NCBI RefSeq assembly: GCF_050920415.1
Contig: NZ_CP169309.1
From: Escherichia coli
Lineage (GTDB): Bacteria > Pseudomonadota > Gammaproteobacteria > Enterobacterales > Enterobacteriaceae
Length of the DNA stretch: 64,000 bases
Direction: 5' to 3' (one strand)
The position numbers are program-made. How positions within the stretch are numbered: position 1 is the stretch's first letter; every line of letters begins with the position of its first letter. Of this stretch, positions 33,501 to 39,500 are shown piece after piece.

Positions 33501-36500
33501 ATTCCAGAACAGTATTTACATCAATCAGGTATGGAAAACCTTACGCTTGGAGAGGCGGAATTTAGCTCACTCCTTGCAGATGCAGAAAGACAAGTTCTGG
33601 AGGGAAGTTCATTTGTTTTATGTTGTGGTGAAAAAATAAACAGCACTATAAGAGACTTACTTAGCGAAAAATTTCATGCCAACGAATCTTTCACTCGCTC
33701 TGGATCTCTTTCTCATGATGTTTATGAGGAAATATTCAAAAAATTTATTTTCAAATCTGATGAATGTCATCTGGTGAGAGAGTCTTTAGAGCAGGATCGT
33801 ATAACGCCAGAAAAAAGAGAAGAAATTATTTCTTGTTTATCCAGTCCTACCGGGATTGGAAATTTGTTTTATGCTTGTTCACAAGCATTTCATGTTGCTA
33901 ATGATAACGCTGCACATGATGTGCGTAGCGCCGCTCTAGCTGTTAGCGATAAATTAATTGATTGTCCGAGTTTTGTTGCTTTGAATGGTAGACATAACCA
34001 TTTTCATGCCGATTTCTCAGCAAACGGATTCACACAAACCCTTTACGTTTTAAGAGCAGTCGTAAATAGCGAGAATAACAACTTTGATATTGCTAATTAT
34101 ATCTATACCACTAAAGGCGAAAGTATCATCCCTAACAACGCTGAAGATGATAATCGGTCAAGGGATAATGATATCCGCAATATAAAGAGAAATTTCTCTG
34201 GCAATATTACGATTGCAACTTACAAATAATTCGCTTTTTTCAGTAATACGCGCAAAACGCTTACCTGAGAGGTAAGCGTTTTGACGATAAACCCAACATC
34301 ATTAGGCCAATACATACCCCATATCTACTTGAACAACATCGCGCTTATCGTTAAGGTATGCGCGTTTTTATCCGCCAGAATCCAATCATGATCACCGTTG
34401 CCCTTACATACCCTTACCCACAAGTTTTCTGGGATATTTCTATGTCATTAATTGACAACATTAATCGTGTTAATCCTGACCATATTGCTTTTGGGCCTGG
34501 TGGCGAATCATTTTTTCTTGCCAGATATCCTCCAGGTCTCGCCAACATTACTGTTGCTGTTTTTATATCAGGAGGATTTTTCGGAGGTGCTGTATTTTCA
34601 ACAAGAAGCCAGAGGTATTTCCACTCATTTCCGGGGGAAATAAATTTGCTAGATATTTCTGGCATAGTTTTATACAATGAGGTTATATACATGATTCGCC
34701 AGTCTATTATTTAATATAGTAACGGTCTGTTTCCACAACATATTGAACCATAGCTCGCTACGACCTCCCCGATGAAGCATGGACCATCATCAAGCCCTTG
34801 TTGCCCCCTGAACCTGCCACACGACGGGCCGGGCGCCCATGTGCAGAGCATCGTAAAATCATCAACGGCATGTTCTGGGTATTGTGTTCCGGCGCACCAT
34901 GGCGCGATTTACCCGAACGATTTGGGCCATGGAAAACCGTTTATAACCGCTTTAACAGGTAGTCAAAGTCAGGCGTGATTAACATCATTTTCAACAGATT
35001 GCTTTCACTACTTGATGCGAACGGCTTTGTTGACTGGTCTGCCACAGCGCTGGATGGCAGTAATATCCGGGCACTAAAATGCGCCGCCGGAGCTCAAAAA
35101 AAATTCCGATATCGACGGAGATAATGGGCTGGGTCGCTCTCGAGGCGGTTTGGGCACCAAAATCCATCTGGCAACAGACGGAAGCGGCCTCCCGTTAAAT
35201 ATCGTGCTAAGCCCCGGGCAGTCTCATGAAAGCCAGTTCGCGCAACGACTTCTGGACGGCATTGGCGTTCATCGTCAGAACGGTTGCATGAAACGCCGTG
35301 GTCATGTTGTGCTGGCCGCCAAAGCGTACTCCGGACTCACATTGCGCAACGAGCTGAAAAATAAAGGCATAAAGGCAGTCATCCCCCGAAAATCAAATGA
35401 AAAAATGGCATCGGATGGACGAGCACGGCTTGATCGCGATGCATATCGCAATCGCAACGTCGTTGAACGGTGCTTTGGCCGCCTGAAAGAATACCGCCGC
35501 ATCGCTACGCGTTACGACAAAACGGCGAGAAATTATCTGGCGATGGTGAAACTGGGCTGCATCCGACTCTTTTATCAACGGTTGCGTAATTAAGGGACAC
35601 AGCCTAGTGTTATGTTTTACAGTAACACGCCGAGGCGTGTTGGCTGATTAGAACTGGTAGACTAAGCCCACAGCAACGATATCATCGGTAGCGATGCCGT
35701 TTGCTTCGTAGAAGTCATCATCGTTGTCCAGCAGGTTAATTTTGTAATCAACATAGGTGGACATATTTTTGTTGAAGTAGTAGGTCGCACCGACTTCAAC
35801 GTATTTGACCAGATCTTTGTTAGTGTAACGCGGGTCGCCGTTGCCGTCATGAGCCCAGCCGCCTAAATCCTTACCTTTAGATTGCAGGTAAGCGATGGAC
35901 GGGCGCAGGCCGAAGTCGAACTGATACTGAGCAACAACTTCAAAGTTTTGGGTTTTGTTAGCGATGGCTGATCTTGATTCACCATTATCAAACTCGCCAC
36001 CACCATATGGGGTCATATTGCGAGTTTCAGCGTACATAGCTGCTAAATACACATTATTAGCATCATATTTTGCACCAACAGTCCATGCTTCAGCGGTTTC
36101 ACCACCAGCATTTCTGTTGCTATGGTTACGATCATTTAAACCAACTCCAACCTGGCGATCTGAGCGATCAGAGTTTGAATATGCAGCACCCAGACTTAAA
36201 CCGAAGTCGAAGTCGTAGGATGTAGACATACCGAAACCATCACCATTTTCTTTGGAAAGGCTACGGCCATCACCACTACCGGAACCTTCCTGCCCGAAGG
36301 GGCCACCACTTTCATTATTATCCTGATATTGCAGAGCAAAGTTCAGACCATCAACCTGACCAAAGAAGCCATTGTTACGGTAGGTTGCAACGCCGTTGGT
36401 ACGACCGTTCATGAAATTGTCGGCACCAGCATAGGTATCACCACCAAATTCTGGCAGCATATCGGTCCATGCTTCGATATCATATACGACACCGTAGTTA

Positions 36501-39500
36501 CGACCATAGTCGAAAGTACCATTCTGACCAAAACCTAAACCTGCGAATGCCAGACGGGTAGCAGAGTTATCGCCATCGCCTTCTGTGCCATTTGCCTGCA
36601 GGTTGTATTCCCACTGACCGTAACCAGTGAATTGATCAGCGATCTGAGTTTCACCTTTGAAACCGATACGAGCATATGACATATCGCCATCAGCGCCCGA
36701 GTTGTCAGAGAAGTAGTGCAGACCTGCTACTTTTCCGTAGAAATCCAGTTTATTACCATCTTTATTATAGACTTCAGCCGCATTTGCTGCGCCAGCAACT
36801 AATAACGCCGGGACCAGCATTGCCAGAACTTTTCTTTTCATTATGTATTCCCTTGTGATTATAATCTTCATGAATATATCAATAAGTGCCGTTATCCAAA
36901 AAAAAGCACATTTGGATACTATTCTATGAAGTTCATTTTATTTTAAGGATTACATGTAACAAATGTATTTAAAAGATTTCAAAATGTTTCCAATCTATTT
37001 AATATAATTCAGAATTATGAATTATAGATATATACATTCATGAAAATTATGAATATATATCAATATGTTATGATTTGATTGAAAAGATAGGAAGTGTCAA
37101 TGATTGTTGCGCCAGACGGCCTATGTGATCGCGCGCACATTAATGAAGGCATAAAAAAAGCCGGCTTCATGCCGGCCCAAAAAATATAAACAAGACGATA
37201 AAAGGCTAATAACGGGGTTATCATGACACAGAAATCTAAAAAGGTATAATTGTATTCAGTGCTAATGTATTGTTTGGGTGAATTAATAAAACCATTATCC
37301 AAGATAAAAATAAATCTTTATTGCTGTTTTTCCGGTAATTATTGCCGTTGCGCAAAAACTATCTATTTGCTCAAAAAATGGTTGAGTCTTGACTGACTCA
37401 TCCAATGTGGAAAAATGTGACTTTTATCACATAATAGTACTAAGTCTGAATTTTCCGGGTTATCTTAAAATGGAATACGGTTCGACAAAGATGGAAGAGA
37501 GACTCTCTCGCAGCCCTAGCGGCAAATTGGCCTTGTGGGCTTTCTATACATGGTGTGGCTATTTCGTCTGGGCAATGGCGCGATACATCTGGGTGATGAG
37601 CCGGATCCCCGATGCCCCCGTGTCGGGATTTGAAAGTGATTTAGGATCTACTGCGGGGAAGTGGTTAGGAGCATTGGTCGGATTTCTGTTTATGGCCCTG
37701 GTTGGTGCCTTGCTAGGCGGCATTGCCTGGTACACCCGACCTCGTCCCGCACGTAGCAGACGCTATGAATAAAAACTGCTAAGGTTGCGACTCTTTGGCA
37801 ACGGAGCGCGTATGGATTTACAACACTGGCAGGCACAGTTCGAAAACTGGTTGAAAAACCATCATCAACATCAGGACGCGGCACATGACCTGTGTCATTT
37901 TCGCCGCGTCTGGGCTACGGCACAGAAACTGGCGGCAGATGACGACGTTGATATGCTGGTGATTTTAACCGCCTGTTATTTTCACGATATCGTGAGCCTG
38001 GCGAAAAATCATCCGCAACGGCAGCGTTCTTCAATACTGGCAGCAGAAGAGACGCGTCGCCTGCTGCGTGAAGAATTCGCGCAATTTCCAGCGGAAAAAA
38101 TCGAGGCTGTTTGCCATGCCATTGCCGCACACAGTTTTAGCGCGCAAATCGCCCCTTTAACGGCGGAAGCTAAAATCGTTCAGGATGCGGATCGGCTGGA
38201 AGCTCTGGGGGCGATTGGCCTGGCGCGTGTGTTTGCCGTTTCGGGGGCGTTGGGCGTGGCATTGTTTGATGGCGAAGATCCGTTCGCGCAGCATCGCCCA
38301 CTTGATGATAAACGTTACGCGCTGGATCATTTTCAGACTAAGTTGCTGAAGCTACCGCACACCATGCAAACCATAAAAGGCAAACAACTGGCGCAGTACA
38401 ACGCGCAATTTTTAGTCGAGTTTATGGCGAAGCTCAGTGCCGAGCTGGCGGGGGAGAATGAAGGTATCGATCACAAGGTGATTGATACGTTTTCACCGGT
38501 TGGCTGAGCGCGTGGCCCTAAATGATGGTAATTATGTTAACCTGTCGACCATCTCAGATGGCCGGTTAAATCTATGCAGGAAAATATATCAGTAACCGAT
38601 TCATACAGCACCGGGAATGCCGCACAGGCAATGCTGGAGCAACTGCTGCAAATTTATGATGTCAAAACGCTGGTGGCGCAGCTTAATGGTGTGGGTGAGA
38701 ATCACTGGAGCGCGGCAATTTTAAAACGTGCGCTGGCGAATGACTCAGCATGGCACCGTTTAAGTGAGAAAGAGTTCGCCCATCTGCAAACGTTGTTACC
38801 CATTCCACCGGCACATCATCCGCATTATGCGTTTCGCTTTATCGATCTATTTGCCGGGATTGGTGGTATTCGTCGCGGTTTTGAATCGATTGGTGGGCAG
38901 TGCGTGTTTACCAGCGAATGGAACAAACATGCGGTACGCACTTATAAAGCCAACTATTATTGCGACCCGGCGGTGCATCACTTTAATGAAGATATTCGCG
39001 ACATCACTCTCAGCCACAAAGAGGGTATAGGTGATGACGCGGCGGCGGAACATATCCGTCAACATATTCCTGAGCACGATGTTTTACTGGCCGGTTTTCC
39101 TTGTCAGCCGTTTTCTCTGGCTGGCGTATCGAAAAAGAACTCACTCGGACGAGCGCACGGTTTTGCCTGTGATACCCAGGGCACGCTGTTCTTCGATGTG
39201 GTGCGTATTATCGACGCGCGTCGCCCGGCGATTTTTGTGCTCGAAAACGTCAAAAACCTGAAAAGCCACGACCAGGGGAAAACGTTCCGTATCATCATGC
39301 AGACGTTGGACGAACTGGGCTATGACGTGGCAGATGCAGAAGATAATGGCCCGGACGATCCGAAAATCATTGACGGTAAACATTTCCTTCCGCAGCACCG
39401 TGAACGCATCGTGCTGGTGGGTTTTCGTCGCGACCTGAATCTGAAAGCCGATTTTACCCTGCGTGAGATCAGCGAATGTTTCCCTGCACAGCGAGTGACA

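Follow-up and report, generated by a model that had tools for sequence, protein, structure and literature searches.

The porin gene yedS of Escherichia coli has been equated in the literature with ompS1 of Salmonella, the two names being written together as 'yedS (ompS1)' (PMC2731931). The Salmonella gene encodes a quiescent porin, and its regulation has been reviewed: ompS1 is OmpR-dependent, repressed by H-NS and StpA, and derepressed by LeuO, which antagonises the repression by H-NS (PMC4264507). In E. coli K-12, the small RNA RseX, encoded next to yedS, 'and surrounding areas' were transcribed only once H-NS (and StpA) had been removed (PMC8313858), and arrays detected a drop of yedS mRNA on induction of sigma-E, as is the case for other porin mRNAs (PMC2731931). 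According to the passages in which Warner et al. 2013 is cited, a clinical isolate deficient in porins 'expressed a functional yedS', which affected carbapenem resistance (PMC4048246, PMC11267920); the title of that study is cited in PMC4048246 and PMC8537846. We analysed the yedS gene in a stretch of 64,000 nucleotides (nt) of the E. coli contig NZ_CP169309.1 (assembly GCF_050920415.1), which is hereafter called the window and to which the positions below refer unless K-12 is named. The gene is uninterrupted in the window, and very probably represents a complete porin gene that is capable of function.

The window gene belongs to the E. coli yedS locus, as every defining feature that we tested was found to be present. 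The gene order vsr-dcm-yedJ-drpB-rseX, porin, (island), hchA is the same in the window, in strain MFDS1022581 (the genome of which is 99.9% identical) and in K-12; yedJ encodes an HD domain, and drpB is also known as yedR. The porin gene thus lies in the same drpB/rseX-to-hchA slot as K-12 yedS (b4496; formerly b1964-b1966), although K-12 has a plain yedS-hchA spacer of 591 nt where the window carries an island of insertion sequence (IS) remnants and orphan genes. The nucleotide identity between the two genes is 94.1% across 100% of the gene, and the proteins share 96% of their amino acids when both lesions of the K-12 sequence are repaired in silico. Promoter, leader and signal peptide are the same in the two, and the differences cluster in loops 1-3.

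In K-12 MG1655 (NC_000913.3), yedS is annotated as a pseudogene at 2034051-2035243. Our alignment and three-frame translation identified its two lesions, namely (i) a CAG-to-TAG amber mutation at codon 162 and (ii) a missing T at nt 663, which causes a -1 frameshift. Neither an internal stop nor a frameshift was found in the window gene by open reading frame (ORF) listing and translation. The six-frame listing gave an open frame from 36871 to 35648 on the minus strand, in which we used the ATG at 36841. This codon is the start chosen by the NCBI Prokaryotic Genome Annotation Pipeline (PGAP) in MFDS1022581, where the gene differs by 1 base; it is preceded by the Shine-Dalgarno sequence AAGGGAA, read directly, and opens a protein beginning with MKRKVL.... 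The original prediction, which held that yedS is intact in the window and is an interrupted pseudogene in K-12, therefore stands on both counts: the alignment revealed neither a frameshift nor a premature stop in the window gene, and the coordinates were exact. The strand, which the original prediction did not give, is the minus strand.

The encoded protein is a general porin from end to end. Porin_1 (Pfam PF00267) spans residues 27-397 and covers profile positions 1-337 of 337 with E=5e-143, which is far beyond what a chance ORF would give. The NCBIfam OmpC-subfamily model NF007841 scored 537.8 bits against a cut-off of 484, and the OmpF and PhoE equivalog models each scored under their own cut-off. 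In comparison with the OmpC and OmpF sequences taken from NC_000913.3, the last 14 residues of the signal peptide match those of OmpC and the A-x-A end is present, as judged by alignment and not by a dedicated predictor. The C-terminus reads ...GLVYQF with the terminal Phe that is a Bam-recognition feature. The original prediction, which had read from the ORF an OmpC/OmpF-type porin of full length, complete with signal peptide and C-terminal aromatic residue, is correct in these points.

YedS shares with E. coli OmpC and OmpF the family, the fold and the residues that shape the pore. In OmpF numbering, the pore-lining basic cluster (K16, R42, R82 and R132), the acidic residues of loop 3 (D113 and E117), the PEFGG eyelet motif, Y102, Y106 and the loop-2 latch Glu71 (E71) are all conserved. 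In contrast, the overall identity to OmpC and OmpF is only 66% and 63%, respectively, the locus is a different one, and YedS carries 30-35 extra residues, inserted after OmpF residues 163, 203, 242-247, 285 and 324. By the published OmpF topology, we take these positions to be the extracellular loops 4 to 8, so that all of the extra residues would lie in those loops. An AlphaFold2 model built from a 22-sequence alignment (predicted local distance difference test, pLDDT, 70; predicted template-modelling score, pTM, 0.70) displayed a pattern of strands that fits a barrel of 16 strands, low confidence being restricted to part of loop 3, the surface loops and the signal peptide. In Foldseek, the model superposed on OmpK37, OmpK36, OmpC and OmpF with target-normalised template-modelling (TM) scores of 0.88-0.90.

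The best solved relative of YedS is OmpK37 of Klebsiella pneumoniae (PDB 6v78; sequence E=1e-145, fold TM 0.88), followed in sequence by OmpK36, OmpC, OmpF and PhoE. We take OmpK37 to be an alternative porin that is expressed poorly and has been tied to carbapenem susceptibility; its loops 5, 6 and 7 lack some of the residues present in those of YedS. Porins behind vsr-dcm-yedJ(-drpB) were also found in other genera by a genome scan, from which 80 loci were kept. Among these 80 loci, the protein identity to the window YedS was 83% in E. albertii, 79-82% in several Citrobacter species and 78% in Superficieibacter, and porins in the same position occurred in the Enterobacteriaceae isolate RIT691 and in K. 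pneumoniae ATCC 13883 (68% protein identity). The synteny of the slot across several genera indicates that the slot is old. The porin in the vsr-dcm-yedJ-drpB slot of K. pneumoniae ATCC 13883 comprises 381 amino acids (aa), and is OmpK37-like, being not identical to the crystallised 6v78. Salmonella was not among the 80 loci kept, and we take the presumed orthology of the window yedS to ompS1 from its equation in the literature (PMC2731931). OmpS1 of Salmonella enterica and YedS both resemble OmpC and have long loops, and the region upstream of their genes is AT-rich; the window also shows OmpR-box-like repeats.

An intact yedS is not special to the window strain; intactness is the rule in E. 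coli, and K-12 is the exception. The 45-mer centred on the K-12 amber was found in 358 of the 5,426 complete E. coli genomes that served as the reference set for k-mer counts, and that centred on the K-12 frameshift in 371; the matches listed were mostly laboratory K-12 derivatives. We also sampled 17 genomes at even steps down the full match ranking of a nucleotide search, and the slot porin was annotated as intact in 12 of them, with lengths from 352 to 404 aa. In the remaining five genomes, the gene was disrupted by independent events, i.e., the amber and frameshift of K-12, a frameshift in O157:H7, and insertions of IS1, IS2 and IS3. Thousands of full-length relatives are present in the protein database, and the names 'outer membrane protein yedS' and 'outer membrane protein S1' occur among them. 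One variant of 395 aa was found on at least 1,000 contigs. The exact window protein has already been deposited in NCBI on 12 contigs. The finding of an intact yedS is hence accurate but already known, being a common and previously published state of a known gene.

The region of 310 nt between rseX and yedS is AT-rich (27% GC), and we consider it rather likely that yedS, given that the gene is capable of function, is silent under ordinary conditions and expressed conditionally. The quiescence is argued from the promoter region, because it is AT-rich and probably silenced by H-NS. In this respect YedS would differ from OmpC and OmpF, which are expressed constitutively at high levels. We aligned the upstream regions of 12 sequences, namely those of the window, eight other E. 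coli strains, E. albertii and two Citrobacter species. A predicted, weak sigma-70-like promoter overlaps a block that is conserved from E. coli to Citrobacter. This block contains the repeats GAAACATTTTGAAAT and GTTACATGTAAT, which by their sequence may be putative OmpR-type boxes, and has the 11-mer ACATTTTGAAA in common with the region upstream of ompC. The palindrome TGTGATCGCGCGCACA resembles a CRP site, and its K-12 counterpart at 2033766 has been footprinted by CRP in vitro (PMC12871828). Downstream of the gene, the consensus scan found no canonical terminator; a hairpin without a U-tract lies just 3' of the stop, and was not called. The homology to K-12 runs about 50 nt beyond the stop of yedS, and then breaks at an IS5 remnant.

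The position of rseX is the same in K-12, and its sequence differs at a few loop and 5' positions. RseX was predicted to pair with the leader of its known target ompC at -30.7 kcal/mol; the value for the yedS leader was -18.2 kcal/mol, weaker than that of about 90% of random segments. Direct control of yedS by RseX was rejected on account of this weak predicted pairing.

Taken together, the intact yedS allele encodes a general-diffusion porin that belongs to the OmpC subfamily and is a 'spare' one on the chromosome. The precursor would be exported through Sec by means of its OmpC-type signal peptide, and the Bam complex, recognising the C-terminal ...YQF, would insert it into the outer membrane. 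YedS presumably forms a trimer of 16-stranded beta-barrels with a pore narrowed by loop 3, through which hydrophilic molecules with a mass of a few hundred daltons, among them beta-lactams and carbapenems, could diffuse. Loops 4 to 8, which are longer than those of OmpF and OmpC, would form the variable face exposed on the cell surface. H-NS and StpA, acting on the 27%-GC promoter region, are likely to keep the gene nearly silent in ordinary growth until it is switched on conditionally. The candidates for this control are regulators of the OmpR and LeuO type, known for ompS1, and the MarA/MicF pathway that has been reported for YedS. If yedS is de-silenced, the window strain could gain an additional route by which beta-lactams and carbapenems enter, as well as an additional potential surface receptor. 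The relevance would lie mainly in clinical backgrounds deficient in ompC and ompF, the scenario of Warner et al. 2013 as far as the citing papers convey it. The suggestion in the original prediction that an extra porin could serve as an antibiotic entry route or receptor was reasonable in our judgement, and agrees with that study as it is cited (PMC4048246, PMC11267920).

Alternative explanations need to be weighed against that of a separate, conditionally expressed porin. The product name given to the gene by PGAP is ompC (porin OmpC), and the OmpC-subfamily model was passed above its cut-off, which might suggest that the window porin is the true ompC of the strain. The chance of this being so is close to negligible, and we rejected it. 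The gene sits between drpB/rseX and hchA, i.e., in the K-12 yedS slot at about 2.03 Mb, whereas ompC-micF-rcsD is located at about 2.31 Mb, and its product is only 66% identical to K-12 OmpC. A second porin locus, with 67-68% identity, was present elsewhere on the same chromosome in the species-representative genome of E. coli. The label 'porin OmpC' arises because NF007841 works at the level of the subfamily, being a subfamily model and not an equivalog. It is also conceivable that YedS has become a constitutive major porin in the window lineage, its silencing having been relieved by the adjacent insertion of IS5 and the island or by changes upstream. Indeed, a 3.9-kb island abuts the 3' end of yedS, and the drpB-rseX-yedS intergenic region of the window differs from that of most strains between -560 and -360 from the ATG (79-85% identity). 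Nevertheless, the window does not differ from K-12 in the OmpR-like block or in the 140 nt nearest to the gene on its upstream side, no new promoter was evident in the consensus scan, and the island lies 3' of yedS, past the hairpin, which makes an effect on the promoter unlikely. We therefore regard constitutive expression as very unlikely.

The opposite case is that the ORF is intact but dead. The gene could be cryptic, either never expressed or crippled by the substitution G174D, and be decaying towards a pseudogene, the state seen in K-12, O157:H7 and the strains with IS insertions. Several observations indeed weigh against a gene that is competent and conditionally used. The independent disruptions in 5 of the 17 sampled slots suggest weak purifying selection in some lineages, and the AT-rich promoter is probably silenced (PMC8313858). 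Anti-YedS antibodies were rare in humans, being found in only 1 of 141 sera, a result that fits low expression and no expression equally well (PMC11242715). G174D falls on a nearly invariant glycine, which 21 of the 22 homologues in the alignment have; the residue sits on the rim, at the junction of strand 8 and loop 4, and the substitution could impair folding. The study of Warner et al. 2013, given as Antimicrob Agents Chemother 57:1935, reportedly concerns MarA-dependent control of YedS through MicF. We found no canonical MicF seed site on the translation-initiation region of yedS: RNAduplex gave -7.7 kcal/mol, compared to -27.1 kcal/mol for the positive control ompF and a mean of -12.2 kcal/mol for random 140-mers. 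As the complementarity is no better than random, a direct MicF site on yedS is not claimed, albeit the calculation is a crude one that includes neither an accessibility term nor Hfq and does not exclude the published MicF effect. On the other side, the pore and assembly residues are all conserved, and the variation among alleles is of the kind expected of a protein under selection: within the class formed by the K-12 and window alleles, 33% of the sites outside the predicted strands are variable compared to 10% of those in strands (Fisher's test, p=7e-8). Conservation within E. coli amounts to 97-100% for the promoter, leader and signal peptide, and that of the core block extends to Citrobacter. 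The 45-mer centred on codon 174 with Asp was found in none of the 5,426 complete E. coli genomes; the D174 protein recurs, however, on the 12 contigs mentioned above, and thus represents a lineage variant rather than a sequencing error. A functional YedS has, moreover, been published, as far as Warner et al. 2013 is known from its citations. We accordingly judge a dead ORF to be unlikely, and retain the reading of yedS as a spare porin gene that is competent and conditionally expressed.

The slot turned out to be hypervariable within E. coli. The barrel-coding segment (window 35648-36778) shares only 40-80% DNA identity between strains and has sharp boundaries, whereas the identity is 95-100% in the flanks, promoter, leader and signal peptide. 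No allele class of E. coli differs from the others, or from E. albertii, in the DNA of the signal peptide. The slot proteins fall into classes of 352, 357, 371, 387 and 395-404 aa that are 59-72% identical to the window protein, i.e., as distant as OmpC is from OmpF. The loop-biased variation described above is what surface-driven diversification would produce. It is attractive to speculate that the slot is a 'spare porin cassette', in which an invariant, H-NS-silenced promoter with its leader and signal peptide is combined with an exchangeable barrel of at least four deeply divergent classes, and in which RseX, also encoded there, has the mRNA of ompC and not that of yedS as its predicted pairing partner. 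We put this idea forward as a tentative one that is more doubtful than not. Pairing of RseX with ompC but poorly with yedS would fit a porin-swap module, which is likewise speculation. If the cassette idea is true, de-silencing would swap the major porin for a lineage-specific one in a single step; recognition by phages, colicins and antibodies would then change together with antibiotic entry, the long-looped G174D allele of the window being one variant. A hypervariable porin slot with a conserved control region could also be mined for phage-receptor and serological diversity. The positions of the features of the locus are given in Table 1.

Table 1. Features of the yedS locus and the adjacent island, with positions in the window
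Feature	Position	Strand	Basis or remark
yedS coding sequence	35648..36841	minus	397 codons + stop, uninterrupted ORF
Signal peptide, 21 codons	36779..36841	minus	aligns to OmpC and OmpF signal peptides; cleavage before AEVYNK
Codon 162, CAG (Gln); amber TAG in K-12	36356..36358	minus	alignment, K-12 frame translation, direct reading
Codon 174, GAT (Asp), window-lineage substitution at nearly invariant Gly	36320..36322	minus	one-base difference from MFDS1022581
Position of the -1 frameshift of K-12 (nt 663 of the gene), with both bases kept in window	36178..36179	minus	alignment column 663
G+C-rich hairpin AACACGC-CGAG-GCGTGTT, without U-tract	35624..35641	minus	just 3' of yedS stop, direct reading
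AT-rich regulatory region and leader, rseX to yedS, 27% GC	36842..37152	minus	composition profile 20-33% GC
Promoter-like site TTGTTA-16 nt-TAAAAT, ~95 nt 5' of ATG	36935..36962	minus	consensus scan, 9/12 matches, prediction
Conserved block (-150 to -60) with OmpR-box-like repeats GAAACATTTTGAAAT... GTTACATGTAAT	36901..36991	minus	near-invariant in 12 sequences
CRP-like palindrome TGTGATCGCGCGCACA	37124..37139		direct reading
rseX small RNA gene	37153..37242	minus	Rfam RF01401, 99.3 bits vs gathering score 50, E=1e-13; directly 5' of yedS
Transposase remnant	31754-32186		in island
458-aa orphan protein	32853-34229	plus	in island
Frameshifted IS5-family transposase	34750-35593		in island

The 3.9-kb island between hchA and yedS (~31190-35600) has a low GC content of 34-41%, and consists of the IS remnants and orphan genes. 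This arrangement was found in only 14 of the 5,426 complete genomes. Two orphan ORFs of 100 and 108 aa in the island had no match in Pfam, and the 458-aa orphan protein had none in Pfam, NCBIfam, PHROGs, PADLOC or PDB. Its AlphaFold2 model (pLDDT 50) was too poor for fold assignment. The 458-aa protein belongs to a family of 'hypothetical proteins' restricted to E. coli (42-98% identity), of which paralogues lie between ilvBN and uhpA in other strains.

On the other side of yedS, positions 37243-37500, which cover the spacer between drpB and rseX together with the drpB 5' end, are 79-85% identical to most sampled strains and 93-94% identical to UTAK-1. This divergence in the sequence suggests a second recombination tract 5' of rseX. 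The ORF assigned mechanically to drpB (37389-37772, plus strand) begins with TTG and encodes 127 aa, whereas the drpB that PGAP annotated in the near-identical genome encodes 93 aa (282 nt). In several sampled strains, namely O157:H7 FRIK2069, A21005-2 and MS15047, drpB is a pseudogene.

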